The notes under the pieces are model-generated. The model saw only the letters and a list, made by a program, of their open reading frames with translations, was not told the DNA's origin and did not search any database. Source: a virus. Taken from it: DNA of 64,000 bases. This document shows, one piece after another, positions 16,784 to 44,798 of this stretch; within the stretch, counting starts at the first letter, position 1; each line of letters begins with the position of its first letter. The position numbers and the translations under genes are program-made. Where the stretch lies: positions 1 through 64,000 of IMG/VR virus record IMGVR_UViG_3300043411_001639; one strand, written 5' to 3'.

Positions 16784-16857
16784 GCGCGAGTCGGATAGGT
16801 TGTCCGGTTTGGCCTTATAAGCCAATAGGCTGAGTTCAATTCTCAGCTCGCGCACCA
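16784..16857 (+). tRNA. tRNA-Ile(UAU), atypical D arm
   Basis: GCGCGAG/CTCGCGC acceptor, TTGGC-CTTATAA-GCCAA anticodon arm, CTGAG-TTCAATT-CTCAG, encoded CCA. Confidence 0.88.
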
Positions 16858-17829
16858 ATAAAATGAAACCTGTAAAACTATTTGGAAATGTTTTTTTGGT
16901 TCAGTCACGCAGTTCTGATGAACTGTTTGATCTGGTTCTATGTAAAGAAAACAGGGAGCTTCCACTGGTTGAAGAAATTCCAGACCCATGTTCATATCAT
17001 GAAACTGATTCTCACGTTCTTGATGACAAATATCTTGATCTTGTTGAACATTGTTTGGATGTTTGTACTTATCAGCAAACAATTGCTCTGCTAGAAGAAA
17101 TAAAATCAGAACAAGTTGATCCAACTAAAATAGCTGCATTTTTAACCAATCAAATGCTTGCGTGGTTTGAATCTTAACAAAAAGGTAAAACAATGATGAT
17201 TCTTTCTGTTGAACAAGGGCAAGCTCTGGTAGATAAATATTTTGGAAAGTATAATGAATTAAGAAAACAGTGTACAGTTTATTACAGTCAAGGTAAACAA
17301 CCTCCTGAATCTCTTGACTTGAAAGAAATGGAACTTTCTTACATGTTGAGACACATCAAAGAACTCCTTGAAGCAGAAGGTTTTGATTGTGTGTTTGATA
17401 TGGAACAGCCATTTGCAAGTTCTAGTGGGATTGTTCGGGTAAAACAATGACACGAAATGATATCAAAGACTGGAAAAGTATTAAAAGATTTTTCTACCCA
17501 GGTTCAAATCAAAGAACTGCTCTGATCATGGGAAGTTTTATTCTAAGCCTCTACCTGATGATGATTCTAACAATGATACTCAACGGTAGGAAACCATTAT
17601 GACAACTGTTCTTGAACAACTAATCAAAGCAGGTGGAAACAGTTATGGAATTCGTACAATTGCTGGGTTTTTGCTAACAATTGAAGATTGCAATGAAATT
17701 GGCAATTATGATAATTCTCCTATCCTCCAGGCAATGGAAGTTATGAAAGTCATTAAGAAGGTTGATCATAAAGCTTCTGATGGAAGAACTAAACTATGGG
17801 AACTTCAACAACTTCTAAAGATGTTTGAC

Positions 17830-17913
17830 GCCAAACTAACTTAACAGAGAAAAGCGGCCCCGTTGAAGGGGTGATAATTCTAGACGTTCCAGGTGCAATT
17901 CCTGGGTTTGGCA
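17830..17913 (+). tRNA. degenerate tRNA (Ser-UGA-like), possible pseudogene
   Basis: GCCAAAC/GTTTGGC acceptor, CCAGG-TGCAATT-CCTGG T arm, 6-nt GTTGAA loop, long variable region. Confidence 0.5.
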
Positions 17914-18172
17914 CTATAAAAGAAAACAACAATGAAAAACAAGTTAAAGTTTGGTTGGAATGTTAGTTGGTTGTTTTTTTTAACGTGGTTGAATCTAAGC
18001 CTTAGAGTGGTGGTTTTACTACTTGTTCCTGTGTTGATCATGTTACCTTTTACGACCAGATATTTACCTGTTCTTTATGTTTGTTATTTGTTTTATACTT
18101 TTGTTTGTAATTTAGCAGCATTTTTGATTGAATGGGGCAGTGTTTTATATCTTTGTAGAATCAAATAATCAT

Positions 18173-18249
18173 TGCAATGGGCTGGTTAAGTCATCAGTAA
18201 TGGACAAGAAACCCTAAACAAACAGGTGCAATTCCTGTCATTGCAACCA
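18173..18249 (+). ncRNA. tRNA-like RNA without a recognisable anticodon arm
   Basis: perfect TGCAATG/CATTGCA acceptor, ACAGG-TGCAATT-CCTGT T arm, ACCA end. Confidence 0.6.
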
Positions 18250-18344
18250 ATGGGTGGAAACAATTGCTGCAACGGAGTAAATAGTGATCTAATATAATAG
18301 TTCATCATCAATGACCCAATAAGACAGACAGGAACAATTCCCAT
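18250..18344 (+). ncRNA. putative structured RNA between tRNA-like elements
   Basis: ATGGG/CCCAT and AATTG/CAATT closing stems with a one-sided bulge; same architecture as 45248..45314. Confidence 0.4.
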
Positions 18345-18349
18345 AACAA

Positions 18350-18379
18350 CCTGCTAAGAGTTAAAAGCCTTAGCAGGTA
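18350..18379. repeat. 10-bp perfect inverted repeat
   Basis: ACCTGCTAAG-N10-CTTAGCAGGT. Confidence 0.8.
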
Positions 18380-18386
18380 TCAGTCT

Positions 18387-18545
18387 GAGAGAAAGTTAAG
18401 CGGTAACTGTTTTCATACACAAGTTTGCAGATGACTACGGTGATGGGTATTTCCAACAACAAGATCAGGGACGGTCTTAAGCTAAACCAGCAATGGTACT
18501 TGTGTCACTGTAAACAACTAGGTTCAAATCCTAGTTCTCTCACCA
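18387..18545 (+). ncRNA. 159-nt tRNA-like RNA with a long helical insert in place of the anticodon arm
   Basis: GAGAGAA/TTCTCTC acceptor + ACCA, CTAGG-TTCAAAT-CCTAG, AGTT/AACT D-like stem, nested GTTTTCA/TGTAAAC, ACACAAGT/ACTTGTGT, TTGC/GCAA helices. Confidence 0.7.
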
Positions 18546-20137
18546 AAGGAATACTATGACTATAACACAGTTTATTACTGGAATAACAATAATTTTATTG
18601 GTATTTATCACTGTTTCTTATATGATAGAGCACTAACCATGTTTATTCCAGATAAAACTCTAAGGTATAGCGGGCTATCCTTAGCCTGTGTATTGCCCGA
18701 AAATATTCAGATGAGTAATCTCCTTGAGAAATATTCGGAGGGTGTTGTAGACGAACCTGGAGATCCTGAAGATGGTTATGGATCAAAGATGATCTGTTTC
18801 CGAAATGACAAAACAGGTCGTTGTTTAACGGTTTATGAGCGGCACGGCCGTCTTCGTATTGGGTGTAATCCCAAATATCTTTATGAAGCAACGGAACTAT
18901 TGGAACAATTAAAACAATTATGAAAACTATTGAAACAATGACGGTTGAAAACTGGAGTGACAACTACATGACTACAAGAGGTGAAATTCTTGCCGATAGT
19001 TTTGTAGGATTGCTTCTTAAACTAGGTGAAGAGGGTTGGTGGTTTAGTTGTTTTAATCCAAAAACAATCGTTGAGACACTTGTATTTCAAAGGGAAACAC
19101 CATGACAATTTCATTTCCAGGTATTGTTGAAACAAAGTATGTTAAGTATGAATCTAAACTAGCTGAACAAGGAACTTATCATTACATCAATGACAATGGT
19201 GTAAAAATCAATTTTGATACCTTTGAGGGAGTTGTTGAACATTTTGGTTCACAAGGTTGGTGGTACAGTGAACCAACTGGATATAATGTTTTTATATTCC
19301 AGCGTTTTGAACCAAAACTAGTTGATGTTCCGGCAACCATCTGAATAATAACAACCATGTATAACACAATCTTTCTAAGAGTTGGTTCTGCTAAACATCA
19401 AGCTAATGCTATTCTTCCTTATTGTAGTTTTAGTCGGAGTAACTTTTGAAGGTATTGTAGAAGTAGTAAAGATTTTTATAAAAGGATAATAAAAACAATG
19501 ATTAAAGATGTATTTAAAATTCTCGGTGTGGCTGTACTATTCCTTCTGTTTGTAGCCTTGTTTTTAGCTGTGTTCTTTGGAATACCTGCACTAGTTCAAT
19601 GGTGTATTAACAGTATTGCTCAGAACGCTCATTCAGACTTTAGAATGGATTATTGGCTAACTTTTGGTTGCTGGATTGTACTAGGTTTAATTGGTGGAAT
19701 GTTCCGCAATTCTAACAAATCAAGTTCAACATGACATATAAAACTCTTAAATTTATACGATTAACTATGTTTTTTGTTTTTGTAGGATTTATTCCAGGTA
19801 TTTTTTGTTGGTTTGTATTTGATTTACCACTGTTAAAAACCATGGTGCTTGGATTGTTTGTTTTAAATATGGTTTTATTAAAAACCTTTATTCTTTCATA
19901 TGTTGAAGATTATTGGTATAATAACAAAAAATGATCATTGTAATATATCTTTGTTTAGTGCTAGGTGTCTTGTTTATTATAGCAGTTTTAGCAATGTTGT
20001 TAGGTATTTTAGTTGATATCTGGATTCATAAATGACAACTACAATTATATATTTTATCTGTGTGTTTATAACTTGGTGTGTTATTGATATTCTATAAATC
20101 AGTTGCAACCATCTTCCAACTCTGCTAGAGTTCCCAT

Positions 20138-20959
20138 ATGCCAAAAAAATCTGAAATGGTTGAAGGCTATCTAAAACCAAAAAAAATCTTTCTTGAGGGG
20201 TATAAATCTCAAGTTGAATCTGGGTGTAGACTTCTTGATATTCCTACTCAATGTTTTTATGAAAGGGATATTCCAAGGCTGGTTAAGTCAGGCGAAATGA
20301 CACCCTTTACTCCAGTTAAAGGAACTGTAAAAACTGTTAGAACCTACTTTCACCACGTAGGAATCAAACAACCTAAGAACGTTGATATTCCTGAAGAACT
20401 CCGTACCATGAAGTTTTGTGGACGTAAGTTCTATGACGGAATGACTCTTGGTAAAATCAGGAGAATGCCAGAGAAGGAACGTTCTAAGCTATTCATCAAA
20501 GCAAGAGATATTCAAAAAGCTTGGAGTGGATCAAATGCTGCTGATGATCTTTTACAAAACACAGGACTGTTTCCTGATAGCACTCCTGTGTTTTGTTGTG
20601 ACTACAAAGAGAATCTTAACGAAAACTATTATTGTCATGTTAGAGAAGGAAAAATTATAGACAATGTTGATCAGAAAATTGAAAAATTTATTGAACAAGC
20701 AATTAAAACTTGGACAAAGAATGTTCATTCAGCATATCGTATTGATATCGGCGAAATAAACGATAAACTAGTAATCACAGAACTAAATGAAGTTTGGTCA
20801 AGTGGAAGATCTGTTTTCTCTAAAATAGAACAGAACTGGGATCACTTTGATTATTATAATCCAAAAAGACAAGAACTAGAAAAAAACTGGCGTAACAAAA
20901 CAAACACCGAAGCTGTTCTTCTGCTTTTGGCACGTTGGAAAGATTTTAAGCTAGTATGA
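20138..20959 (+). CDS. ATP-grasp domain protein (R2K/DUF4343-like)
   Basis: G(T/S)V..V, LFIK...K.WSG, AYRIDIG....LVITELNE..SSG ATP-grasp motifs. Confidence 0.65.
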   Translation: MPKKSEMVEGYLKPKKIFLEGYKSQVESGCRLLDIPTQCFYERDIPRLVKSGEMTPFTPVKGTVKTVRTYFHHVGIKQPKNVDIPEELRTMKFCGRKFYDGMTLGKIRRMPEKERSKLFIKARDIQKAWSGSNAADDLLQNTGLFPDSTPVFCCDYKENLNENYYCHVREGKIIDNVDQKIEKFIEQAIKTWTKNVHSAYRIDIGEINDKLVITELNEVWSSGRSVFSKIEQNWDHFDYYNPKRQELEKNWRNKTNTEAVLLLLARWKDFKLV

Positions 20960-21432
20960 GTGAACTGTTACAACACACTGTCTGTTACACAAAACATTCT
21001 TTTTCTAATTTTGAACCCAAAGATCCTGTTCTTGAGATGATTTATAAACTGTGTCCATTGTTTGGATTAACATTTGAACAAACAGATGGAACAGGAATTT
21101 GTTCTGTTATAGGATATCACAACAGCACAGCTTTAGCCTGCCCAATTATCCAGATTAAGACAAACCAGATATGTTTTACATTTGGGTATAACTTTGATCA
21201 TTGGACTGTATCTTATCAAGGTCCAAAGTTTAATCCAGAACCCATGAGTTGTTTAACCTACAATGGTTTGGAGCATACAGGACATCCTGATATCAGTTAT
21301 ATAATGCCAAAAGAGTTAGTGTTTAAGAATATCAGTAAAACTAACACTTCTAAGTTTACTGTTGAGATAGGTAATAAATTCAACTTATACATGTTCGTCT
21401 GGTTGTTAACAAAACAACTGAAATTACACTAA
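20956..21432 (+). CDS. hypothetical protein
   Basis: 158 aa ORF, ATGA overlap. Confidence 0.65.
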   Translation: MSELLQHTVCYTKHSFSNFEPKDPVLEMIYKLCPLFGLTFEQTDGTGICSVIGYHNSTALACPIIQIKTNQICFTFGYNFDHWTVSYQGPKFNPEPMSCLTYNGLEHTGHPDISYIMPKELVFKNISKTNTSKFTVEIGNKFNLYMFVWLLTKQLKLH

Positions 21433-21437
21433 ATCAG

Positions 21438-21466
21438 TTGCATCTACCTCTGGAACCTGCTAAGGT
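21438..21466 (+). promoter_or_regulatory. phage early promoter (leaderless, mnmA)
   Basis: TTGCAT-17-TAAGGT; ATG 6 nt later. Confidence 0.85.
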
Positions 21467-21472
21467 TCATCT

Positions 21473-22552
21473 ATGTCTACCAACAAGAAGATTCTCGTGG
21501 GAATGTCTGGTGGTGTGGATTCTGCTGTTGTTGCGGCTATTCTTGCAAAACAGGGGAATGAAGTCATCGCCTATACTCTGAAACTTCTTGAATCTTTTTC
21601 TGTTGATGAAGAAGGTGAAGAGGATAACACCAAGGGATGTTGTTCTTTTGAAGACATCAAAGATGCTACTCGTGTCTGTGACAAGATTGGTGGAATCAAC
21701 CACGTTGTTCAGAACTGGAAGAACCAGTTTTATCAGACTGTTATCAAGCCTTATATTGATGGTGCTCGTGAAGGTGTAACTACCAATCCTTGCATCACCT
21801 GTAATTCTTCTATTAAAATCCCTGTTTTGATGGCTGTTGCTGCAAAACTTGGATGTTCAAAAGTAGCAACAGGGCATTATGCCCGTGTTTCCAGTGATGG
21901 AAAACATATCATGCGTGCTGCTAATCTCAAAAAAGATCAATCTTATTTTCTCTGGGATCTTACTCCCGATATCATCTCACGTCTTGAGTTTCCTCTTGGT
22001 GAAGTTTCAGACAAAGAAGATACTCGGGAAATGGCTCGTGAGTTTAATCTTCATATTTCTGAGAAGAAAGATTCAACCAATCTCTGTTTTCTAAAGGGAG
22101 GAACAAAGGAAGAGTTCCTTTCTAAGAATGGCGTAGTATCTGAACCTGGGAACTTCGTTGACACCAACGGAACTATTCTAGGAAAGCACCAGGGATATAC
22201 AAAATATGTTCCTGGGCAACGTACAGGTTTGAACTCTAGCAACGGTGCAAGGTTTGTTCTTAACGTAGTTGCAGATACTAATACTGTTGTAGTAGGCGAC
22301 AAGTCTACTGATGGAATTTCAACCGTAACTATTAACAAAGCTAAGTGGGTTGATGGAACTAAGCCTTCACTTGATGCTCTTGAAGGTGTTTGCAGGTATC
22401 ATTCTGCACCTGTTGGAATCAAGTCTATCACTGAAAACTCTGATAACACTTGGACAGTTGAGTTTAATACTCCTGTGTTTGGTATCACCAAAGGTCAACA
22501 TCTTGTGTTTTATCAGAATGACTGCGTGATGGGTGGTGGAGTGTTTGTTTAA
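21473..22552 (+). CDS. mnmA: tRNA U34 2-thiouridylase
   Basis: PP-loop SGGVDS, NPCITCN, ATGHYAR, KDQSYFL, FPLG, KKDSTNLCF, GQR.GL, GQ..VFY...GGG. Confidence 0.95.
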   Translation: MSTNKKILVGMSGGVDSAVVAAILAKQGNEVIAYTLKLLESFSVDEEGEEDNTKGCCSFEDIKDATRVCDKIGGINHVVQNWKNQFYQTVIKPYIDGAREGVTTNPCITCNSSIKIPVLMAVAAKLGCSKVATGHYARVSSDGKHIMRAANLKKDQSYFLWDLTPDIISRLEFPLGEVSDKEDTREMAREFNLHISEKKDSTNLCFLKGGTKEEFLSKNGVVSEPGNFVDTNGTILGKHQGYTKYVPGQRTGLNSSNGARFVLNVVADTNTVVVGDKSTDGISTVTINKAKWVDGTKPSLDALEGVCRYHSAPVGIKSITENSDNTWTVEFNTPVFGITKGQHLVFYQNDCVMGGGVFV

Positions 22553-23107
22553 TAATATAAATGTAGCCCATCTAGTTCCAGGTAATTTAATTCTTTATTG
22601 TGAAGTAATACATGTTGTTTTAACTCAACCAACCCGAGGATTGGGTGATTATACCAGTTATTGGTTTTTTCAAACATTGAACTCAAAATAACTCCCACAT
22701 GATAATATTAGGCAGCTATTTTAAAGTTCTATGTTAAGAACTGTATTAGCTAAAAATTTAAAACCCGGAATGATTATCAAGTGTGGGTTTATGGTATTAA
22801 CAATCAACAAAGGTATTACTGTCTGGTTTTTAATGGAATATGAGATTCAGAAAAAATATATCCTTAAGTGGGAAGTACGCCAAACAATCTAACAAAAAAG
22901 AAAAACAACGACAATGACATTCTACATCCTAGTGCTAAACGGTCTGTTTTATGTTGAAAATCCACAGGAAAGAATTTCTTTCTATGCTCTGGACTATGAA
23001 GATGCCTATGACCGTATTGAGTTTGAACTAGAAGAAATGGTTGACAGTGGTTATATTCCAGTTGAAACCAGTGTTCAGGTAGTTGAAATGTTCCTTCCTT
23101 TCCCACT

Positions 23108-23320
23108 ATGACTAGAGCTATCTTAGCAAGAGATCTAAAATCAGGAGATATTATTAAATGGAACAATTCCTTGATGTTGGTTTTAACTGAAGAAATGGGA
23201 AACAATCAAACCATAGTATTTCGGTTGTTATCTGGTACTAAGATTAAAACTCAAACATTCTGGAAGGATGTAGATCTAGTAAATGTCTATGATCCAGCAC
23301 TGGTTGATCTATGGCAGTAA
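23108..23320 (+). CDS. family A small protein
   Basis: LKSGDII..MLVL. Confidence 0.55.
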   Translation: MTRAILARDLKSGDIIKWNNSLMLVLTEEMGNNQTIVFRLLSGTKIKTQTFWKDVDLVNVYDPALVDLWQ

Positions 23321-23514
23321 AAACTATTCACCCATCACACCTAAAACCTGGAATGGTAGTTGTATCAAACAACATTTTGCTTATTTTATTGGTATTAATT
23401 CCTAGAGATATTCATTTTAAGGAATATTTTATTGGTTTTAGATGCTTAACATTAAAAGGTGTTGTAGGTTGGGTATGGGATTTAGAAGAAGATCTAGTAC
23501 AGATACAAGTATGA
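23311..23514 (+). CDS. family A small protein
   Basis: LKPGMVV..LLVL. Confidence 0.55.
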   Translation: MAVKTIHPSHLKPGMVVVSNNILLILLVLIPRDIHFKEYFIGFRCLTLKGVVGWVWDLEEDLVQIQV

Positions 23515-23529
23515 ATTACAACAAATCAG

Positions 23530-23558
23530 TTGCATCTCCCCTCGGAACCTGCTAAGGT
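23530..23558 (+). promoter_or_regulatory. phage early promoter
   Basis: TTGCAT-17-TAAGGT. Confidence 0.85.
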
Positions 23559-23590
23559 TGGATCGTAGACCACCACCAAACGGAGTTGTT

Positions 23591-24019
23591 ATGGGGACTG
23601 GTAAGCGGTTTTTGGATCTTGCTATCAGAAAGTGTAGAGAGCACAAGTTTGATTCCGCGATGGAATTTACTCTGTGTGCTATTCTCGTGAAGAGTGGACG
23701 TGTTCTGTCCATTGGTTTTAACCGTTCGGGTTATTCAGCAATGATGACAAAGCACAAACACCACGATGGTGTTTGTTCCGTACACGCCGAAGTTGACGCT
23801 TTACTTCAGGCAAGAATGTGTGGTGTTACTGACGCAACCATCTATGTTGCCCGTGTTCGTAAAAAGGGTGATCTTGGATTGGCAAAGCCCTGTCCTATGT
23901 GTCAGTCAATTCTCCATGAACAGGGTATCAAGACTGCTTTCTTTACCTTGATTGGTTCAGATAATGCGTTTGGTACCCTTAACCTTCGTATTCCTCCAAC
24001 CTTCAAGAGAATGGGATAA
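23591..24019 (+). CDS. cytidine/deoxycytidylate deaminase-family protein
   Basis: HAE...PCPMC Zn motif; start moved to ATG 23591 (GGAG RBS, downstream of the promoter). Confidence 0.85.
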   Translation: MGTGKRFLDLAIRKCREHKFDSAMEFTLCAILVKSGRVLSIGFNRSGYSAMMTKHKHHDGVCSVHAEVDALLQARMCGVTDATIYVARVRKKGDLGLAKPCPMCQSILHEQGIKTAFFTLIGSDNAFGTLNLRIPPTFKRMG

Positions 24020-24324
24020 CAGTGAAATATATCATCAAAGATCTCTATAAGCGTTTTCTTCTACTGTTTGTTTTAACAGTTCGTTCTGAACAAAGGAATG
24101 AAGTAGAGTTCAAGCATTTTCTTTGTCTCTACTTTTTAACAGTGAGCCATCATACAAAATTCTTCTCTGTTACCTGGAGAACAGGTCCAGATAATCTTCA
24201 TGATGGTTTTGGAACAAGTTTTGGTAGGTTTTTTGATAACGCTTTTACTTTAAGTGGTATTGGTGTGAGCAAACAACAAGATACACAAGGATGTTTGACT
24301 CCTATAACGGTTGTTTCATAGGTT

Positions 24325-24361
24325 AGTGTAATCCTATTCATATAGGAAGAGGAGAGGGGTA
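24325..24361 (+). repeat. dispersed repeat, copy 1 (hairpin + purine tract)
   Basis: AGTGTAATCCTATTCA..TAGGA.GAGGAG.GGGGTA; second copy at 39760..39796. Confidence 0.7.
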
Positions 24362-24362
24362 T

Positions 24363-24866
24363 ATGTCTTCAGATCTGTATATTGATGGTTTTGTTAGTTC
24401 AGATAGAACTTATGATGAAGATAATATTGAAACCAAATGGATTGGTCATCTAGGAACTTGTACTTACTTTGGTTTTCACCTAACAGATAGAATCAATGAT
24501 TATCGTCATAGGAACTGTCTGAGATATTCAGAAGTAAAGTTTTTGACTGATGAACAAACAAGTGAAATCTATTCCGATTATTATAATCAACTACGTAGGT
24601 TTCAAGAAAAATTAGGCAATGATCATTGTAGTTGTAATCAACCAATGTCTGATGAAGATGTTGAAGCACTTGTTTCTATCTTTGATGGTCTGGATAAACA
24701 CTGGCAACATCTAAACAGTTTAACAGATAAAGAGTTTGATGCTCTTGGTTATGCATATGTAAGACCAACTCCTGAGAAAGTTAGGGAGGATATCTTTTCT
24801 GGTGAAGAGATCAGGGATAGTTTGGTTGATATGATTGGCTTTTACTGGAATACAAGGTGTGACTGA
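24363..24866 (+). CDS. hypothetical protein
   Basis: 167 aa ORF with strong GAGGAG RBS. Confidence 0.75.
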   Translation: MSSDLYIDGFVSSDRTYDEDNIETKWIGHLGTCTYFGFHLTDRINDYRHRNCLRYSEVKFLTDEQTSEIYSDYYNQLRRFQEKLGNDHCSCNQPMSDEDVEALVSIFDGLDKHWQHLNSLTDKEFDALGYAYVRPTPEKVREDIFSGEEIRDSLVDMIGFYWNTRCD

Positions 24867-25272
24867 CATGAATCAAAGATATTTCAACGGTACATTCATC
24901 TGTTACAGGGTTCCTAACCCACAGAATCCCAACAAAACAAACACAGTGTTTTATTTCTGTTGCATTGATGGTATTCCAGCTAATGTATCAGAAGAGGTTT
25001 GGGAGAACTGTAATCCTGAACATCAATGTCTTAGAGTAACCATCTCTCCTACCAAGGGATTTATTAGAGAATGGTTTAATGGTGCTAATGAGGCTGTGAT
25101 CAATACTCCAGCTAATCATTTTCAAACAACAAACATCTGGGGATAGGATAGTTATGAATACTACCAGAGTGCAACCCAATTACAATCCCAACACAGATCC
25201 AATTGAACTTGCTGTTATGGGTTTTGTGTGTTTGTTTGCGTTGTTCTCTCTGTTCTTTGTAATGATTGAACA

Positions 25273-25301
25273 GTGCAACTAGTCTAGGACTGTGTTAGAG
25301 T
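25273..25301 (+). promoter_or_regulatory. phage early promoter (variant)
   Basis: GTGCAA-17-TAGAGT. Confidence 0.65.
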
Positions 25302-25311
25302 AGGGTATCAA

Positions 25312-26007: not shown

Positions 26008-26219
26008 AAATAAGAAAACAGATCCAAGAGATAAAACCTGGAGACTTGGTTTATTCTATCTTTGATAAAAGTTACTTAGTGTTAGACAATAAATTTATTG
26101 GATTGTCTTGTTTTAACAACGAAATTTTTAAAATGATCTGTCTTTCTGCTAAAGGAAATATTGTGGACATACAAGCTAACGCAGATAAATGTTATACTCT
26201 TTTAAATGATAGAAGTTAA
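26004..26219 (+). CDS. family A small protein
   Basis: IKPGDLV..YLVL. Confidence 0.55.
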   Translation: MKIRKQIQEIKPGDLVYSIFDKSYLVLDNKFIGLSCFNNEIFKMICLSAKGNIVDIQANADKCYTLLNDRS

Positions 26220-26914: not shown

Positions 26915-26920
26915 TGATAG

Positions 26921-35521: not shown

Positions 35522-35550
35522 TTGCATCTCGCTCCGTAACCTGGTAGTGT
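35522..35550 (+). promoter_or_regulatory. phage early promoter
   Basis: TTGCAT-17-TAGTGT. Confidence 0.85.
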
Positions 35551-36216: not shown

Positions 36217-36669
36217 ATGGAACGTCTAACCAAGACAGGTTTTCCAGTTTCAACTAGTACATTCTGTTTCTGTCAGATCTGTGGTAAAGGAGCTATCACA
36301 GATATCTGCCACTATACAATGTGGCAAGAGATGGATGATAAAGATGTTCCTGAACCTGGAAACTTCATAGTTGTTTGTAAAGATCCAGCATGTAACAAAG
36401 TAGTTGATGATCATCCAAGAGGTTATCAAGAAGTCCCTTGGAGCTTGGGTGGTCCTGGTGCCTTCATGCTGACTTGTGGTGATTGTGAATACCGCCAAGG
36501 TTTTTCCTGTACAAATCCAGGGCTGACTGCTAACGGTGGTTCAGGACTTGAAGTTGGTTTTAGAAACATGTTCGTGGATAACATGATTTATTGTTTCAAT
36601 GATGGTAGAGGTTGTAGAAAACCATTTGGGGACCGACCAGTTATTAGTTGTGTAGGAAACCCAAAATGA
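36217..36669 (+). CDS. Cys-rich hypothetical protein
   Basis: multiple CxxC pairs; AGGA RBS. Confidence 0.7.
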   Translation: MERLTKTGFPVSTSTFCFCQICGKGAITDICHYTMWQEMDDKDVPEPGNFIVVCKDPACNKVVDDHPRGYQEVPWSLGGPGAFMLTCGDCEYRQGFSCTNPGLTANGGSGLEVGFRNMFVDNMIYCFNDGRGCRKPFGDRPVISCVGNPK

Positions 36670-37558
36670 TGATAGCAAATGTTAGTAGCATTGAGTTGTT
36701 TACTAGAATTCTAGATGGTGGTTTTACAATCAAATGTAATTGTGGTCATATTCACAGGGTCGTTGAACCTTTTCCGAAAACCAGAAAGCATAACAACCAT
36801 GTTTAAAGTTGAAGTAGGTTTAGTTGGTATTGTTTACTCAGGGCCTTCTAACACTGAAGCTGAAACAACCTATGAAGAATACTGTGAACAGTCTCATAGT
36901 CTGGTTGGTAATGCTGCAAACCAACCTGTAACCATGTGGTTTATGAACGAAGTAGTTCACTCATATCAACCTGACTCAGATGATTTTGGAATTAGTGATT
37001 GCAATGACTAGAAACTATGCAGTAGTTTTGAAATTCTTTGATGGTTATATCCAGGTAATAGTTCGGGCCAAAAGTTTAGTAGAAGCAGAAACCAAAGTAT
37101 TAGCAATCAAGCCTGGAAAACTACTCAAACTCTGGTTTGAACAAAACCCACCTAGTGTTGTAATGATTAGTACAGCAGATGAGGAACCTGTAACAAAACT
37201 ATGAAAATCAATGCTAACACCAACTGTTTTGATGAACTAGAAGAAGCTATTACTCATCAATATGTTCTTCGTACTTCTGGATATGACTACAGTGAACGTG
37301 TAGTTCCAGAAAGAACAGATCTAGGAAATAGATTGGTTGATGCTGGAGTTTGGGATGGTGATAAACGAGATGATGAACGTTCAAAACTAGAGCTTGAAAG
37401 ACAGAGTGAGCCTTATGAAGAACAATCTAACCATGAAGTTAAAGTTCTAACAACTTTCAATGTTTCAGGGCATCTTTATGCTAATATCTCAATCCCTGAG
37501 ATTCCAGGTTCAGATTATTGGATTAGTATCTAACCAAAGTTGTTTCAGACAAACTCTG

Positions 37559-37587
37559 TTGCATCTCCCCTCTCAACCTGCTAAGGT
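37559..37587 (+). promoter_or_regulatory. phage early promoter (leaderless)
   Basis: TTGCAT-17-TAAGGT; ATG 37594; preceded by TTGT-TTCAG-ACAA at 37540. Confidence 0.85.
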
Positions 37588-38393
37588 ACATCTATGAGTG
37601 CGAGATACTACTGTCCTCAAGCGTGTGATTCCCGTAAAGGGTGGGTTGATCTTCCCTCTTTGGCTTCAACCAAAGAAAAAGAAGCAGAAAAGAACGTCAT
37701 GGAATGGCGGGAACAATCCCCCTCAAACAACACCCTCCAAACCCGTGTTATTCGTAAACCTCATGGATGGGAGCCCTGAACATCATGGAATTCAACAAAT
37801 CAAGCCTGATTCATCGTCTCAAGCATATTCTCCAGATGAAGGGACAGATCGGACATGATCTGAAAGCTGGAGATGTTCACTACGAATCCATGTACGAGAT
37901 CTTCGTAAAAGAAGGTGGAAGGGAATACAGGTTCATCGGAACTCTGGGTTTTGGAGGTAAGATCTATTACTCCATTTCCAAGGGATTTTGGGTGGATTGT
38001 TATCCCGAAGATCTGACAGATGAACGGGCAGAGACAATCAAAGAGATCAACAGGTCACTGGACATTCTCGCGAACAAATCCGACAAGTTCGGTTTCCTTC
38101 AACACTGAAAGCAATCATTACCATGCAAAACTCTGAAGAACTCATCAAATATACCTTGGGTCTGATGAATCAGAACATCAAGGTAGTAAACGAAAACAAG
38201 ATTGCTGCCTATGAGCACATGGAAATGATGGAAGAAAAGTTTTCTTTCGTATTGTCTGAGGGTTATTCTGATGAAGAAACTGCCAGAGCTGAAAATGATA
38301 GGATTGAAGCACTTAAATCCTATAAAGATCTCTGTGATGAAGAAACTGCCTGTCTAACAGATCGTAATGCTTTTCTAAAAGAAACAGCATAAC

Positions 38394-38750
38394 ATGCCTA
38401 TCAAAAAAGAAACATATCTCTGTTGTTCCTGTATGACTGAATATCCAACAGAACAAGAAGCTAGTAAGTGTGAAACACAACTGCCAGGAACACGTAGAGC
38501 TACGAGAATCTACAATCCTGATGAAATTTTAACAGTTAAATCATGGACACCTTGTGAAACCTTTGAACTGGTTACTGTTAAAGTAATCCGAACAGAAATT
38601 GGTCCTGCAAGCAGTGGCACTAGAGGTTTGCATGAAAACTACGTCATAGTTGATAAATGGATTGATATCCTAGATTACTATGACCACGCTAGAGACTGTT
38701 GGGAAACTGAACATACAACTAGAATTCCAGCTTCAAAAATTGATGATTGA
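38394..38750 (+). CDS. CxxC..CE family protein
   Basis: YLCCSC...EASKCE. Confidence 0.65.
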   Translation: MPIKKETYLCCSCMTEYPTEQEASKCETQLPGTRRATRIYNPDEILTVKSWTPCETFELVTVKVIRTEIGPASSGTRGLHENYVIVDKWIDILDYYDHARDCWETEHTTRIPASKIDD

Positions 38751-39054
38751 ATAATCATATGAGTTATCAACGTTTGATTTCTACAATTTCAGATCTATCA
38801 GTTCCACTTAAACCAGCACCATTCACACAACGGGTTGTTGCTTGGTTCTTTTCAACCTATGCTAACAAATGGAAATGGCATAGACAGAAACAAGGTGGAA
38901 GATGGGCAAGAATCTTTAAGAGAGAATTTTTAAATAAACCCTATCAACTAAAAGGCTGGGAACAGGTTCCCAAATGCATATTTCTGTTATATCCAGAAGG
39001 AACATTTAGTTATATAACTGGGGAATGCACTAAAGAACAATGTAACTGTGAAGT

Positions 39055-39705
39055 TTATGGTTCTTGATGATCTGGTGTATGATCCCAAACACTGTCTTTG
39101 AATTTAATGTTCTTGTTATACCAGATATTCATCTCTCCAAGATCTTCTTGGAATCCCTCAAAAGTTAAATAATCTAAAGCAGTCTGAGTGTCAATTTGTT
39201 TGACTACTTTGACTGTTTCTGGATCTAACAATGGTTCACCGTCTGAACCAACATCATACGTAATAAAAACAAACTCACCATCTGAGTTTTCTTGTAAACT
39301 CTCCACAGGCAGTAGTTCTCCCGTGACTATATATACCTCATCGTTAGCTATGGGTTTGATAAAAAGCTCCCAAAGCATGTGCTGAAAGTATTCCCTGCTC
39401 CCACCTGTTGAATATCTAGCACGGCTATGGTTAGGTGCTTGTATCTCATAATACTTCCCATATTTCTTAACAAAATAAACAGATAGACCGTTTTCTTTTG
39501 TTTTACCCCACATCATATCATTTCTAAATTCCGAGTCTAACCCTACCCTGCTCCTAGTAGTCTCATCGTATCTCCCAAATCTAATAAATAAGTGTGCTTT
39601 ATTATCAAGCATCTCAGAGTTCCTGACTCTAGGGAGTGACTTGATGTAGTTGGAGTATTCCTCATGATCTTGTTCAAACAACCAGTTAGCTAATACCAAA
39701 CTCAT
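39055..39705 (-). CDS. putative virion-internal protein (capsid-targeting-like N-terminus)
   Basis: the only long minus-strand ORF in the early region; starts MSLVLANWLFE; upstream TAATTA. Confidence 0.65.
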   Translation of the reverse strand: MSLVLANWLFEQDHEEYSNYIKSLPRVRNSEMLDNKAHLFIRFGRYDETTRSRVGLDSEFRNDMMWGKTKENGLSVYFVKKYGKYYEIQAPNHSRARYSTGGSREYFQHMLWELFIKPIANDEVYIVTGELLPVESLQENSDGEFVFITYDVGSDGEPLLDPETVKVVKQIDTQTALDYLTFEGFQEDLGEMNIWYNKNIKFKDSVWDHTPDHQEP

Positions 39706-39759
39706 ATCTTGTTAATTACTTCCTTGTTCTAAGTAGTTCCAGCAACTTACTAGTTAGTC

Positions 39760-39796
39760 AGTGTAATCCTATTCAAGTAGGAGAGGAGGAGGGGTA
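39760..39796 (+). repeat. dispersed repeat, copy 2
   Basis: AGTGTAATCCTATTCAAGTAGGAGAGGAGGAGGGGTA, matches 24325..24361. Confidence 0.7.
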
Positions 39797-39852
39797 GGTT
39801 CTTATCAACGAATAAATAACTGGATCATACTCAACTTGTTCAGACAAACTAG

Positions 39853-39881
39853 TTGCATCCTGCCCTGTAACCTGCTAGAGT
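39853..39881 (+). promoter_or_regulatory. phage early promoter
   Basis: TTGCAT-17-TAGAGT. Confidence 0.85.
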
Positions 39882-39905
39882 CATGGGTAGAGAAGGAACA
39901 GAACA

Positions 39906-40124
39906 ATGCAGCACGTACTTTTTTCATTCAGTGAAAAAACTGACAATGAAACCCATTTCATCCATGAATGGGAGAACTGGAATGGAACTGTTCCTGTGAT
40001 CGGAGACATTGTTGTTGTGAAGGTAAATAAATATTATAGACGAGGTGAGCCATTTCAAGAAACTTACTTGGTGGTTGGGAGAACCATTCTCTCTGAAACC
40101 ATTACTGTGTGCTACGTAGAATAA
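39906..40124 (+). CDS. small protein, family B
   Basis: H.I.EW...P.IGD.VV...Y.V.GR; paralogues 40235 and 40459. Confidence 0.7.
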   Translation: MQHVLFSFSEKTDNETHFIHEWENWNGTVPVIGDIVVVKVNKYYRRGEPFQETYLVVGRTILSETITVCYVE

Positions 40125-40179
40125 AAGGAGTTAATTCAGCTTGTTTCAGACAAGTCTGATTTATTTCAGACAAACTCTG

Positions 40180-40208
40180 TTGCAACACCCGCTGGAACCT
40201 GCTAGAGT
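40180..40208 (+). promoter_or_regulatory. phage early promoter
   Basis: TTGCAA-17-TAGAGT; three TTCAG-core elements upstream. Confidence 0.85.
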
Positions 40209-40234
40209 CATGTGTAGAGAAGGAGAACTGAGAA

Positions 40235-40462
40235 ATGAAGACCGATCTGCTTTTCTGGTTCAAAGACTCAATCAGTAACACAACCCACTCTATTACAGAA
40301 TGGGAAGATCCTCAGTTTATTCCTAACGTCGGGGATACTGTTGTTCTTGAAGTATTTGAACTTAATTCTTCTATCTGGAAGCCTTCTTTTCGCCGTACAT
40401 ATGTTGTTACTGGTAGACTCATCAATTCAAATGGTTGTGGCGTTGAAATCTTCGTAGAGTGA
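40235..40462 (+). CDS. small protein, family B
   Basis: HSITEW..P.VGDTVV..YVVTGR. Confidence 0.7.
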   Translation: MKTDLLFWFKDSISNTTHSITEWEDPQFIPNVGDTVVLEVFELNSSIWKPSFRRTYVVTGRLINSNGCGVEIFVE

Positions 40463-40707
40463 TAAAGAAAGAACAAGTTCCCATGAACGTCATGTTTGGT
40501 TTCAGTGATCCTCACAAACAAGAAAACTATTCAATCAAAGACTGGAAAGGATACAACAGTCCTTTTCTTCCTGGTGTTGGAGACCGTGTTTGGATTGCAG
40601 TCTATAAAGGGGAAGAAGTGAGCGACAAAAGAAAATACTGCAAAGTAGTTGAACGTTCTTTCTATCCAGACGGTGATGTTTTTATGGAAGTTCTCTGGGG
40701 AGACTGA
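40459..40707 (+). CDS. small protein, family B
   Basis: SIKDW..PGVGDRV..KVVER. Confidence 0.65.
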   Translation: MIKKEQVPMNVMFGFSDPHKQENYSIKDWKGYNSPFLPGVGDRVWIAVYKGEEVSDKRKYCKVVERSFYPDGDVFMEVLWGD

Positions 40708-40730
40708 CAACAACAAAGGAAACAATCTCA

Positions 40731-41090
40731 ATGAGCTACATTCTCTGGATTGATGATCTTCGTGATCCCAACAACCATCACTACGCAAGAAAAGTCAATA
40801 TGTATGCTCATAGGAAAAATCTTCCTGTGGTTTGGGTGAAAACCTCTCAGGAAGCAATCCAGTATGTTCAGAACAACGGTCTTCCTTTTCTTATGTCACT
40901 TGACCATGATCTGGGAATTCTGCTCAATGGTGTGGAGGATACCACCATGTATTTTCTCAAGTGGCTTGCTTATGAATATACGAATCTTACATCTGATAAT
41001 TTTCCTATCTGGATGATCCATTCAGATAATGGTCCTGGTAGACTTAACATGGATAGTTTTCTTGCATCACTGAAGAAGTCAATGGAATAG
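40731..41090 (+). CDS. cyclic-phosphate-processing receiver-domain protein
   Basis: LWIDDLRDP...SLDHDLG...IHSDN.PG..NM pattern. Confidence 0.75.
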   Translation: MSYILWIDDLRDPNNHHYARKVNMYAHRKNLPVVWVKTSQEAIQYVQNNGLPFLMSLDHDLGILLNGVEDTTMYFLKWLAYEYTNLTSDNFPIWMIHSDNGPGRLNMDSFLASLKKSME

Positions 41091-41908
41091 AAATGACAAC
41101 CATAAAAACAATCGTTGTTATGATCGTAGATGACAAAGAAGTAGCCTCATGCTGGCATCTAAACAAAACCTCTGAAGGAAAATATGAAATCCTTGGAGGA
41201 AAAGGAGAACTTGAGAATTACCTAATTGAATCTCTCAACAATCCAGACTATCAACTTCCTTCTTTTGAGGATAAGTGACCATCAGGTTTTCTTAGTCCTA
41301 AACCATCTTCGTTACTAGGAACACCTAGAACAAGAAACCTTTATATTCAATGTTCTAGTCCAATGGACAAGCAGAATTCAACTACAACGGTTTGATAAAA
41401 ACTAAAGTTAAAACTCATGAAACTCAAATATTTTACTAGCTTTGGTGATATTAAACATCTGTTTGAATATAACTTCAACACTGTTGCAACAATCTGGTAT
41501 TCTGATTCTCAAACAAAGGTAAATGTTCTAGTAAAAAAACTAGGTGATAGGTTTGATGAGATAATTTATGATAAACAGTGGATGAATAATCTAGCAAACA
41601 TGTTAGTAGTTGAACATGTTGAGGTTAGTGATCAACCAAATTATTTATTGTTTAAATTTGATAAACTGGAGTAATAAAATGGAAATGTTTCCTTTTGATG
41701 ATACTCTCTGGCTTCCAGTAGTTTCAAAAATCTCTGATGTTGGGATTTTAAAACCACCAAAGTTTGATGAAGAAAACAATATGTGGGTGTGTACATTTAC
41801 ACATAATGAAACAAAAGAAACCAAGAAAACTTGGGGCGATGATGCTCCAACTTGTATAATCAGATTGTTTAAATTTCTATTCCCAGGCATTAAACCCTGG
41901 TAAAACAG

Positions 41909-41937
41909 TTGCAACCTGCTCTGGTACCTGCTAGAGT
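41909..41937 (+). promoter_or_regulatory. phage early promoter
   Basis: TTGCAA-17-TAGAGT. Confidence 0.85.
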
Positions 41938-41959
41938 TGGAACTAGGGAGTACATCACC

Positions 41960-42304
41960 ATGTCTGTTCATCCTAAACACGCTTTGGAACGTGCTTCTGA
42001 AAGATATGGAATAGTTCTCAACAACCAGGATATTATCAACATGGAAAGGTTGATCATGGAGGGGAAAGACAAACCTTACTGGTTTATTCGGGATGGAATC
42101 AAAACCAGATTTCTTCCTCCTATTCATGATTTTCTCCGACGTGGTGATAAAAGTACCAACCAGCGGATTGCTGGTGAAGTGTATTACCGTGGTAAGTGGT
42201 TTATCTATATCTTTCGTACTTCTGTGAATGAGATTGTTACTCTAATGCATCCTAAAACCAAGTTCAACTCTGAGGGTTGTACTATCACCAAAAACCTGCA
42301 CTAA
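41960..42304 (+). CDS. putative BECR-fold (HAxxR) RNase-like protein
   Basis: KHALERASERY N-terminal helix and C-terminal IVT strand; start ATG 41960 after GGGAG. Confidence 0.45.
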   Translation: MSVHPKHALERASERYGIVLNNQDIINMERLIMEGKDKPYWFIRDGIKTRFLPPIHDFLRRGDKSTNQRIAGEVYYRGKWFIYIFRTSVNEIVTLMHPKTKFNSEGCTITKNLH

Positions 42305-43314
42305 CATAAAAAAGAACACACAAATAATTGCTTAGTATAGTGTTTCAAGGTTTTTGTAAACAGGTTACTACTCACATCAAGATTGGAAACTATTGATCAT
42401 GTTTATGGCAGGGGTGAGAAATGCAGGAAAACTTCAATCAACTTCAATCAGAGTGTTTGATGTAGTTGAGCAAGCTATTGAATATGGCAAAGATAAACCC
42501 TCATTCATGTATCAAGGGTTTATCTGGGAATTGTTTACAAACAGAAAACCCAAACTAATCTATTCCTTCTACAAAAAGAAATTCATGAAAAAGAATCATG
42601 TATAAAATTATCAGGTTTTATTCAAATCCTTCAATCCCTAATAGAACAGTTCAAACTGGCCTAACTCTAGAACAAGCACAACGCCATTGTTCCGATCCCA
42701 ATTCCAGTTATAAAACCTGTACTACTAAAACAGGAAGAGCAAGAACAAAAGCTAATGGACCTTGGTTTGATGGATATACAAGACAATGACATATTGTTAT
42801 GAATTTGAAAATCAATGTGATGGAGTTGAAAACATCTGGATAACCACTGAGAGCTTCTGGAATACTCACGGATATTTCTCCGATCAGGAAAGAGGTAAGG
42901 AATTTCCTCTGGCAATACAACACCTCCTAGTGAATATTAGTGAGGCATGTTTTGAACTACGAAAACCGTATACCAAACAAGAGTTTATTAACCTAGCCAA
43001 CCTCTTAGGATGGAAACATGTTGGTGTTTGAACTAGAACTATTCCAGCATGTAAACAACCAACAGAAGTTCTCCGTTGAACTATGGGGAGATGATGTTCT
43101 TGATAAAGCTAAGTTTTGGTATGATACCATGAAACTAAATGGTCCTGTATATGTTACAGTTAAATCAGACTGTAACTGTATAACCAAAACACCTATTCAA
43201 CTAAAAATACTTCCAGGTAATGTTTGGTGTACTAGACGTCAGTTGCATACCTGGACTGTATCAGTCTAATCAACTTTGTTTCAGACAACCCAACGATTAG
43301 CTGAACTAATCTCG

Positions 43315-43343
43315 TTGCAACCCTCTGTGAGTCGTGGTAGTGT
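43315..43343 (+). promoter_or_regulatory. phage early promoter
   Basis: TTGCAA-17-TAGTGT; both palindrome types upstream (43276, 43295). Confidence 0.85.
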
Positions 43344-43383
43344 CAGGTTGTCAGTCGGGCAGAGCAACAGAGGAACTAATTCA

Positions 43384-43800
43384 ATGATCACTCCTGCACA
43401 GCAAAAGCGTATTGATGAGAAGCTCGCGCGTCAGGAACGAATCCGTAAGGAAGAGGAGAATCAGAGAATCGCAAAAGAAAAGCGGATGTCTGAAGAAACT
43501 CAACGTCTTCAGGCAATCGTAAGGTTTACCGAAAAATGCAATGGTATGGGAGATTTCAAGTTCTCCCATCACAGCATTCAGCGCGTGATGGAATTTAATG
43601 ATTTTGGGAATGGTTACGGAGAGTTTTATTTTTCATGCGATGATAAACCTGTTGTTGGGTTTTCTGATATCAAGCGTATTTCTGAGTTCCTTGGAACTGA
43701 AAACATCAGCATCAAGACCAACTGCGTACTGATTTCTCTGGATGATGACGATTCTTATAAGAAGGTATATACCCTTTGTGTTGAAGTGGGCTGGATCTAA
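43384..43800 (+). CDS. family C protein (coiled-coil + alpha/beta domain)
   Basis: G.F.F.CD..P...F.D...IS..LGT..I.I; paralogues 47205 and 47942; start ATG 43384. Confidence 0.7.
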   Translation: MITPAQQKRIDEKLARQERIRKEEENQRIAKEKRMSEETQRLQAIVRFTEKCNGMGDFKFSHHSIQRVMEFNDFGNGYGEFYFSCDDKPVVGFSDIKRISEFLGTENISIKTNCVLISLDDDDSYKKVYTLCVEVGWI

Positions 43801-43808
43801 CAAACCAG

Positions 43809-43837
43809 TTGCAACGTGTCGGAGAGTCTGCTAGAGT
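43809..43837 (+). promoter_or_regulatory. phage early promoter
   Basis: TTGCAA-17-TAGAGT; drives a small ORF starting at 43893. Confidence 0.85.
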
Positions 43838-44059
43838 CAGGGTGTAGCAGGGCAGTGAGAGATAAGACACCAACCAACAAGAGGAAAACATCATGGAAAC
43901 CACCACCATCCGTTTCAAGTTCAAGCACCAGAACAACGTTCGTATCGTGGAAACCTCTTCTGTCAATGGTTTCAAGGGGTGTCTGGAACTCGCAATTGGT
44001 GAACTCGGCTGGAGCAATCCTTCAATCGTGTGGTTCGTGGAGAAGAACTAAAACCAGAG

Positions 44060-44088
44060 TTGCAACCCTTCGGCGAGTGTGCTAGAGT
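44060..44088 (+). promoter_or_regulatory. phage early promoter
   Basis: TTGCAA-17-TAGAGT; ATG 44127. Confidence 0.85.
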
Positions 44089-44405
44089 CTGAGTGTAGCA
44101 AGGCAACCAACCTGGAGACAAGAATCATGCAGGTAAACATCAAGCACGGTTACTGGACTTATCAGGGTTCTGTCAGTGATATTGGTGAAGTAACCAACGT
44201 CAAGGTGTTCAACGGTCGTGAACCTTATGTTTCTTCTGAAGAGGAGCTCACCGAAATTCAGGATCTTCTCTTCTCTGCTTCTAAGGGATCACGGTTTGCG
44301 GGAATGACCGTAACCCTGACCTAGAGAGGAAACAACACCATGAAGATGGCAACTGGTCCTCCCTGAACTAACAAGAACTCAAGGCTGATAGATATATAAA
44401 CACAA

Positions 44406-44490
44406 GCTGGGATGGTGGAACGGTAGACACCGGGGCCTTAAAAGCCCTTGCTCTGAAAAGAGCGTGCGAGTTCAAGTCTCGCTCTCAGCA
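44406..44490 (+). tRNA. tRNA-Leu(UAA)
   Basis: GCTGGGA/TCTCAGC, GGGGC-CTTAAAA-GCCCT, long variable arm, GCGAG-TTCAAGT-CTCGC; no encoded CCA. Confidence 0.93.
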
Positions 44491-44726
44491 CTATATTCAA
44501 AACCCGAACGAACAAGGAGAAAAACAATGAGTCATCCGCGCGAAAACGTCATGGTCGTCACAGTTCTGGTTTTCTGCAATCCCGCAGACAAGTCTCAAAC
44601 CTCCGAACACGCGGTTTACGGGGATAGAGCCTACGAACGGGTAAAGAAGGAAATGGCAGATCTGGGTTGGGAAATCAAGGAAGAATTCGGTCGCGCAGTA
44701 GAATTCCGGTAATAGTTTGATCATAT

Positions 44727-44798
44727 GCAGGGAACCCTCTGGTTGGGGGAGCGACTCTTATAAAGTCGTCATGGTGGGTTCAATTCCCACTCCCTGTA
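44727..44798 (+). tRNA. tRNA-Ile(UAU), atypical D arm
   Basis: GCAGGGA/TCCCTGT, CGACT-CTTATAA-AGTCG, GTGGG-TTCAATT-CCCAC; no encoded CCA. Confidence 0.85.

Follow-up and report, generated by a model that had tools for sequence, protein, structure and literature searches.

The closest described systems are tRNAPyl and mammalian mitochondrial (mt) tRNASer(UCN), both of which have a compact core with a single connector base, a small D loop, an anticodon stem of 6 base pairs (bp), and a variable loop of 3 nucleotides (nt) (PMC7609411). We describe here two tRNA-Ile(UAU) genes, tRNA1 and tRNA2, that appear to share this type of core. They lie in the first 64 kb of the 156.7-kb uncultured-phage record IMGVR_UViG_3300043411_001639, and we refer to this whole 64,000-nt stretch as the window. 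The phage is T4-like and AT-rich (35% G+C over the record). With a little more than even confidence, we lean toward the view that both genes encode working elongator tRNAs that read AUA, built on an inherited compact core that is kept by selection on the fold and is not specific to an isoleucyl-tRNA synthetase (IleRS). No description of compact-core Ile(UAU) tRNAs in phages was found in the literature, and a review of noncanonical tRNAs makes no mention of phages (PMC7609411).

A similar layout is seen in tRNAPyl of Methanosarcina barkeri and Desulfitobacterium hafniense, in which a 7-bp acceptor stem, one connector base, a D stem of 4 to 5 bp, a 5-nt D loop, one free base, a 6-bp anticodon stem, and a 3-nt variable loop follow one another (PMC7609411). 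The D. hafniense molecule also lacks U8 (PMC7609411), as does tRNA2, which has A8 instead. However, G18G19 and the T-loop consensus are missing from tRNAPyl, whose codon is UAG and whose synthetase is PylRS, whereas the phage genes keep GG and the T loop TTCAATT and have the anticodon of a sense codon. Mammalian mt-tRNASer(UCN) (type I) resembles the phage tRNAs in retaining the G18G19 and T-loop motifs and the L shape together with a very short variable loop (PMC7609411). It differs in being an organellar serine tRNA with no sequence kinship to them; the phage tRNAs are isoleucine tRNAs with variable loops of 3 to 4 nt, and the sixth anticodon layer of tRNA1 is U.U. We regard the compact core as an architecture shared with tRNAPyl and mt-tRNASer(UCN), not as the mark of a homologous family. 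These two tRNAs provide precedent for a working tRNA of such a layout.

Other systems share the anticodon or part of the geometry. In Mycoplasma mobile and other bacteria without tilS, tRNAIle2(UAU) likewise reads AUA without lysidine and needs an IleRS that accepts U34 (PMC3575796). By that paper's description, the peculiarity lies in the synthetase and the ribosome and not in the core (PMC3575796), whereas the phage tRNAs are compact. tRNASec and the allo-tRNAs, among which UAU is a frequent anticodon and which include allo-tRNA(UAU), resemble the window genes in their long D stem and very small D loop (Mukai et al., PMC5389517). They have acceptor/T branches of 8/4, 9/3, or 8/5 bp and a long variable arm (PMC5389517), in contrast to the 7/5 branch and 3- to 4-nt variable loop found here. 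Membership in that group, which calls for a branch of 8/5, 9/4, 8/4, or 9/3 bp and a long variable arm, was rejected on the basis of this branch and loop, together with a score of 30.7 bits against a cutoff of 47 in the Rfam tRNA-Sec model. The tRNA-Ile of phage T4 is also an isoleucine tRNA of a T4-type phage that supplies AUA decoding, but it has a CAT anticodon, U8-A9, a D loop of the 8-nt class, and a standard core. The CAT anticodon of the T4 tRNA needs the lysidine synthetase of the host.

Core layout of the two isoleucine tRNA genes

ARAGORN calls tRNA-Ile(tat) at 16784-16857, with an encoded CCA, and at 44727-44799. Both genes lie on the plus strand, tRNA1 at 16784..16857 and tRNA2, without an encoded CCA, at 44727..44798. 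In the Rfam tRNA model (RF00005), they score 44.1 and 32.3 bits, respectively; these are the two lowest values among the eight phage tRNAs, and both exceed the gathering threshold of 29 bits. The predicted folds are more stable than those of shuffled sequences (z of -4.3 for tRNA1 and -3.5 for tRNA2). The call for tRNA1 is also backed by its Rfam and family alignments, and that for tRNA2 by a near-identical copy in a metagenome contig (L137).

The initial annotation described two genes with unrelated stems, each with a 4-bp D stem closing a 5-nt loop (AGGTT or TGGTT) and a 3-nt linker before the anticodon stem, and direct reading finds the bases exactly as it gave them. The stretch between the acceptor and anticodon stems is 18 nt long in both genes (T C GGAT AGGTT GTCC GGT in tRNA1 and A C CCTC TGGTT GGGG GAG in tRNA2). 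For tRNA1, Infernal independently aligns this D stem and has to delete two D-loop positions and insert 2 nt after position 26; the canonical register would form 0 of 4 D-stem pairs. A canonical class I core has two connector bases (U8 and N9), a D stem of 3 to 4 bp, a D loop of 7 to 11 nt with A14 and A21, and a single base (26) ahead of a 5-bp anticodon stem; tRNA2 departs from it at A8 and U14. C9 can form a pair with the first G of the linker in both genes, which gives a 5-bp D helix and a 1-nt connector, and the last linker base stands opposite the first base past the anticodon stem (U.U in tRNA1 and G.U in tRNA2). The arrangement counted as 2 nt, 4 bp, 5 nt, 4 bp, and 3 nt thus reads better as a 1-nt connector, a 5-bp D helix, a 5-nt loop in which G18-G19 and U20-U21 are retained, a single free base, an anticodon helix of six layers (26 opposite 44), and a variable loop of 3 to 4 nt, set between a 7-bp acceptor stem and a normal T arm with A73.

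In these terms, tRNA1 has its acceptor strands at 16784-16790 and 16847-16853, the connector T16791, and a D helix (16792-16796 with 16802-16806; C-G, G-C, G-C, A-U, and U.G) that closes the D loop AGGTT (16797-16801). The free base G16807 is followed by the anticodon helix (16808-16813 with 16821-16826, topped by the U.U layer) with the anticodon TAT at 16816-16818, the variable loop AGG (16827-16829), the T arm (16830-16846), A73 at 16854, and CCA at 16855-16857. The corresponding elements of tRNA2 are the acceptor strands 44727-44733 and 44791-44797 (with G1.U72), the connector A44734, and the D helix 44735-44739 with 44745-44749 around the D loop TGGTT (44740-44744). The free base A44750, the anticodon helix (44751-44756 with 44764-44769, top layer G.U) with TAT at 44759-44761, the variable loop CATG (44770-44773), the T arm (44774-44790), and A73 at 44798 complete the gene. 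The minimum-energy RNA fold of tRNA2 is exactly 7/1/5/5/5/1/6/7/6/4/5/7/5/7. A slipped 3-bp D register drawn by ARAGORN for tRNA2 was rejected, since a third tRNA found in sibling contigs (tRNA3, described below) aligns base for base on the 3' strand and favors the 5-bp register.

The acceptor, anticodon, and T stems of the two genes differ at almost every pair. What they have in common is A73 and two loops, CTTATAA in the anticodon arm and TTCAATT in the T arm, within a frame of a 7-bp acceptor stem, a 5-bp T stem, a 7-nt T loop, and a G18G19 pair available for the elbow. The other six tRNAs of the phage (Arg, Leu, and Lys) are canonical, as had been noted: all six align to the Rfam model with U8, a D stem of 3 to 4 bp, a loop of 8 to 10 nt, and one base at position 26.

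Features of isoleucine identity are present in both genes. The anticodon loop has A35, U36, A37 (the t6A site), and A38, and the discriminator A73 (A16854 and A44798) recurs in every family member found; A73 is listed as a determinant of tRNA-Ile (PMC9976931). In Escherichia coli tRNA-Ile, the D-loop determinants are G16, D20, and D21 (PMC9976931). The GGUU of the phage D loops coincides with this region, with U20 and U21 present and G16 absent. The minor E. coli determinants further comprise C4-G69, the 12-23 pair, and C29-G41 (PMC9976931). In the phage genes, the 4-69 pair is C-G in tRNA1 and G-C in tRNA2, and the 29-41 pair is G-C and A-U, respectively, and not C-G; these rules hold for a bacterial-type IleRS, and the phage enzyme is of another type.

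Relatives, replacement, and rarity

Sibling contigs were reached through the protein cluster of the phage IleRS, and further members of the family through pattern scans of IMG/VR and JGI metagenomes (L123, L175, L096, L036, L086, and L194 among the matches listed). An alignment of nine distinct phage and metagenome tRNAs places standard pairs in 95% of the helix cells, versus 60% for shuffled sequences and 42 to 56% for slid registers. Changes on both sides of a pair occur at all five D-helix pairs and all six anticodon-helix pairs, and at 15 of 16 pairs overall. The four loop-proximal D pairs are standard in all nine relatives, with 3 to 4 pair types each. The outer D pair (the C9 layer) is standard in six of the nine, and the connector may be read as 2 nt long instead. 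The 26-44 layer is a standard pair in eight of nine relatives, versus 14 of 68 canonical viral Ile(UAU) tRNAs among the matches listed.

Seven sibling contigs from seven samples (L084, L402, L403, and L409 to L412) carry tRNA3, a third Ile(UAU) tRNA with an encoded CCA, which is identical in all of them and occupies the position of tRNA1. The neighboring IleRS is at least 90% identical to that of the phage. The D arm of tRNA3 (AA CCTTC TGGTT GGAGG AG) has U-A in place of a C-G pair of the tRNA2 D helix, and there are compensated changes between the two at three acceptor pairs and all five anticodon-stem pairs. The T arm of tRNA3 is that of tRNA2, and its acceptor stem is close to that of tRNA1. 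Directly 3' of tRNA3 lies a remnant of tRNA1, from the variable loop through the greater part of the 3' acceptor strand, and CCAAT is shared at the junction. A 39-nt spacer plus tRNA3 thus stands in place of the first 43 nt of tRNA1 (window 16774-17190 compared with L084 3600-3745). The same seven contigs lack the 104-amino-acid open reading frame (ORF) at 16863-17177. As judged from these contigs, the spot beside the IleRS gene is a hot spot of cassette-like tRNA replacement.

Because nine tRNAs keep the layout with changes on both sides of their pairs, and because siblings replace tRNA1 with a third compact version, the comparison supports purifying selection on the fold over decay. The initial annotation had proposed that the shape is selected, and the conserved layout, the two-sided changes at every D and anticodon pair, and the U-A/C-G swap between tRNA2 and tRNA3 bear this out. 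Random D-arm decay, the outcome that it named as contrary to its proposal, was not seen among the homologues found.

A second replacement seems to have occurred at the tRNA2 locus. Twelve nucleotides downstream of tRNA2, at 44811..44840 on the plus strand, lies the 3' stump of an older tRNA, with the end of an anticodon stem (AAGTCG), a T arm (GGTGG-TTCAAAT-CCACC), a 3' acceptor strand (CTGGCGG), and A73; its 5' half is missing. Canonical viral Ile(UAU) tRNAs whose anticodon stem is the same (L071 and L078) are similar to it in their 3' halves, and a canonical gene at this locus seems to have been overwritten by a compact one. The metagenome contig L137 carries a copy of tRNA2 with a single C-to-T change, which turns a C-G pair into U.G, followed by the same downstream flank; the stump is kept with one change, on the reverse strand just downstream. 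Similarity between this contig and the window begins exactly at the 5' end of tRNA2. Scans for tRNAs with the same anticodon arm were set aside as a source of orthologues, as they returned only tRNAs with a canonical core.

The compact core is rare. A pattern made of the anticodon loop and T loop only, and hence blind to the D arm, gave at least 82 distinct viral Ile(UAU) tRNAs; among the 82 listed, 68 parse as strictly canonical, and no more than three have a D helix whose loop is 5 nt or shorter. At this frequency among the unbiased matches listed, the layout shared by tRNA1 and tRNA2 is unlikely to be due to chance. An earlier count, by which most viral Ile(UAU) tRNAs would be compact (42 of 63), was withdrawn. 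It came from a biased pattern (GGTT, 12 nt, CTTATAA), as canonical tRNAs have 11 nt at that place, and the unbiased pattern reversed the picture. The biased pattern found 79 matches in 185,579 bacterial and archaeal species (one genome each), one of which passes a simple tRNA test. By these scans, the compact core belongs to a minority of tRNAs and hardly occurs outside viral and metagenomic DNA; both Ile genes of this phage have it.

The distribution suggests that the design does not follow the synthetase. Among 24 virus records that hold an Ile(UAU) tRNA with an odd D arm, 23, many of them fragments, lack an IleRS gene, and the sole carrier is a giant-virus bin. The records without IleRS include four complete phage genomes that pass the tRNA test, and L036, one of the four, has the layout of the window genes. 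The layout also occurs outside the isoleucine tRNAs, as a tRNA-Arg(CCG) on another phage contig (L086) reads 7/1/5/5/5/1/6/7/6/3. On other contigs with an odd Ile(UAU) tRNA, there are Val, Asp, and Thr tRNAs whose D stems are extended to 6 bp and capped by tetraloops.

Function, charging, and competing explanations

On the reading that we favor, Watson-Crick pairs in the longer D and anticodon helices would stand in for the tertiary contacts U8-A14, 15-48, and 26.44. The GG of the D loop could still dock on the T loop, and the L shape needed by EF-Tu and the ribosome would therefore be kept. Folding would then depend less on core tertiary contacts and possibly less on modifications. The layout would be inherited, as a design found in a minority of the tRNAs of uncultured phages; most of these are Ile(UAU) in this sample, but Arg is represented as well. 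Codon usage fits such a role. In 75 long ORFs, ATA accounts for 38% of Ile codons and AGA for 69% of Arg codons. ARAGORN finds eight tRNA genes in the 156.7-kb record, all on the plus strand and all within the window: three Arg(UCU), two Ile(UAU), and one each of Leu(UAA), Leu(CAA), and Lys(UUU). All eight read codons that are A-ending or AT-rich. Because this set matches the AT-rich codon usage of the phage, two AUA decoders are plausible, and the compact tRNAs would serve the heavy use of AUA.

Charging would probably be the task of the phage's own eukaryote-type IleRS, a 988-amino-acid protein with a DUF5915 C-terminal domain (13248..16214, plus strand; Pfam tRNA-synt_1, Anticodon_1, and DUF5915), whose gene ends 570 nt upstream of tRNA1; a gene for an MnmA-type tRNA thiolase lies 4.6 kb downstream. 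UAU tRNAs are poor substrates of E. coli IleRS, and bacteria that lack tilS and use Ile(UAU) have an altered or eukaryote-type IleRS (PMC3575796). U34, if unmodified, is predicted to misread AUG (PMC3575796). A phage IleRS makes sense for the anticodon; this argument concerns U34 and not the D arm, and the compact core would not be a device specific to that enzyme.

Several points weigh against this interpretation. In the minimum-energy fold of tRNA1, the D helix is overextended to 7 bp and capped by a GGU triloop, and the sixth anticodon layer is only U.U; the exact layout of this tRNA is therefore taken by analogy from the family. Possession of the hairpin was the criterion for choosing the nine aligned sequences, which makes the percentage of paired D-helix cells partly built in, and only the variety of pair types is independent. 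tRNA1 as such is dispensable, as it is destroyed in siblings. The absence of IleRS is drawn from records of which many are fragments, and L036 is the only complete genome with exactly the layout of the window genes. The part of these tRNAs in translation is deduced from genes and predicted folds, and the benefit of self-contained folding is deduced as well; the trait could be neutral and simply tolerated.

An alternative is that the compact core is co-adapted with the phage IleRS as a recognition or anti-recognition feature, forming an orthogonal pair that host synthetases ignore or mischarge less. The proximity of the IleRS gene to tRNA1 speaks for this, as does the fact that the seven siblings always keep a compact Ile(UAU) tRNA at that spot even though tRNA1 itself was overwritten. 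The poor charging of UAU tRNAs by E. coli IleRS and the eukaryote-type IleRS of tilS-less bacteria with Ile(UAU) (PMC3575796) would fit as well, and D-arm shape is an identity element elsewhere, for example for SelA and PSTK on tRNASec (PMC7609411). The initial annotation had suggested such a recognition feature for the phage IleRS. The distribution lends it no support, as nearly all odd-D virus records, complete genomes included, lack an IleRS, most viral Ile(UAU) tRNAs among the matches listed are canonical, and a tRNA-Arg(CCG) has the identical layout. Moreover, four siblings (L405 to L408) have an IleRS at least 90% identical to that of the phage and yet no Ile tRNA within 10 kb of it. We consider this explanation unlikely; local co-adaptation of core and enzyme in this one phage is compatible with the distribution. 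Alternatively, the altered core may spare the AUA decoder from a tRNA-cleaving or tRNA-modifying defense of the host that reads the elbow or D arm. Phage tRNAs are known to escape tRNA nucleases, the compact class is almost confined to viral and metagenome DNA, and replacement was repeated, with a canonical-type stump behind tRNA2 and a tRNA1 stump behind tRNA3 in the siblings. We know of no defense system or nuclease that targets tRNA-Ile, which counts against this possibility, and no feature of the window ties these tRNAs to a defense or counter-defense gene. Lys(UUU), a classic target of nucleases, is among the six other tRNAs of the phage, all of which are canonical. Proven escape changes sit mainly in the anticodon stem-loop, with D-loop contacts modeled for AriB (PMC12409363). 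Altogether, evasion of a host defense strikes us as quite unlikely.

We think it no likelier that the compact core is a neutral trait of the lineage, one that arose once or a few times, was tolerated, and was inherited, with the two genes as old paralogues or members of a common pool. The genes share loops and layout while their stems have diverged, Ile(UAU) tRNAs of either type, compact or canonical, are found among phages without any evident correlate, and the D region varies in length without a break between 16 and 22 nt across the pattern set. This account differs from selection on the fold only with respect to benefit, not function, and repeated replacement by a compact tRNA at two loci hints at more than drift. 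By far the least probable explanation is that the genes are decaying pseudogenes or gene-finder artifacts, with D arms made odd by mutational erosion. In favor of decay are the fact that the genes score lowest of the eight in the Rfam model, the G1.U72 pair and missing CCA of tRNA2, and the destruction of tRNA1 in siblings. However, all four helices are intact, the folds are far more stable than those of shuffles, and the compensatory changes across nine relatives contradict erosion. In addition, tRNA2 in L137 differs by one base, from C-G to U.G, AUA is a heavily used codon, and the siblings put another compact Ile(UAU) tRNA in place of tRNA1, so that the function was not lost. A bolder scenario joins several of these elements. 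Compact tRNAs would have replaced canonical ones in some uncultured phages, and run on bacterial ribosomes, because they are invisible to a host enzyme (a defense nuclease, an enzyme that modifies tRNAs, or the IleRS of the host). For this phage, a natural orthogonal pair for AUA decoding would then consist of the compact Ile(UAU) tRNAs and the eukaryote-type IleRS, with the stumps at both loci as scars of replacement. We regard this as improbable.

To our knowledge, bacterial-type translation is usually said to employ only tRNAs with a standard core. The window genes still form cloverleaves, but with a core layout otherwise known from pyrrolysine tRNA and one mitochondrial tRNA; here the codon served would be an ordinary sense codon, and many uncultured phages have the layout with compensatory changes. 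If active, these tRNAs would be a guide to what is tolerated by the bacterial ribosome, EF-Tu, RNase P, and an IleRS and would offer natural starting points for the design of orthogonal tRNAs. Because compact tRNAs score near or below detection thresholds, censuses of viral tRNAs undercount them.

Genomic surroundings and further observations

No match to a 2-kb flank was found by BLAST against cultured-phage records, and tRNA1, tRNA2, and three other compact members had no meaningful match among 50,697 such records. With the IleRS as the anchor, IMG/VR yielded giant-virus loci only, at 31 to 34% identity. The nearest relatives of the enzyme outside the phage clade are 45 to 58% identical, and the named ones are mostly of Bdellovibrionota type. 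The siblings L405 to L408 have very different neighbors beside their IleRS genes (see L405 21237-21740), including an ADP-ribosylglycohydrolase gene and a phage-encoded IF3 (IF3_N and IF3_C), and by these comparisons the translation genes of this phage group lie in a highly mosaic region. On contig L082, whose IleRS is 58% identical, ARAGORN finds no tRNA, and the contig reaches just approximately 3.8 kb past the gene. It also has a class II synthetase gene (tRNA-synt_2 with an anticodon-binding OB fold) and, at 3530-3720, approximately 190 nt of very GC-rich sequence within AT-rich DNA, which could be an assembly chimera.

Unusual tRNAs accompany some of the odd Ile(UAU) genes elsewhere. The metagenome contig L096 (Ga0209874_1011515), which holds a compact Ile(UAU) tRNA, also carries a tRNA-Ser(UGA) drawn by ARAGORN with an 8-bp acceptor stem and a 4-bp T stem (the 8/4 type of Mukai et al.), an Asp(GUC) tRNA whose 6-bp D stem closes a tetraloop, and an Arg(UCU) tRNA with a reduced D arm. 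The giant-virus bin GVMAG-M-3300024302-11 (L051 and L401) has two tandem 69-nt Ile(UAU) tRNAs with 16 nt between the acceptor and anticodon stems, and its IleRS is 36% identical to that of the phage.

In the window, a sigma-70-type promoter-like site (TTGCAA, 17 nt, TAGTGT) at 16197..16225 on the plus strand could drive two small ORFs and tRNA1. An exact motif search with no mismatches gives exactly two occurrences, the second at 44859-44887, right after the tRNA2 stump. A looser form (TTGCAACC... with a TAGnGT box 17 nt downstream) has 21 matches, all on the plus strand, versus 4 expected; approximately 19 copies are additional to the two exact ones (e.g., at 46919, 52829, 53549, 54054, and 54139). 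The recurrent motif looks like a candidate early sigma-70-type promoter of the phage.

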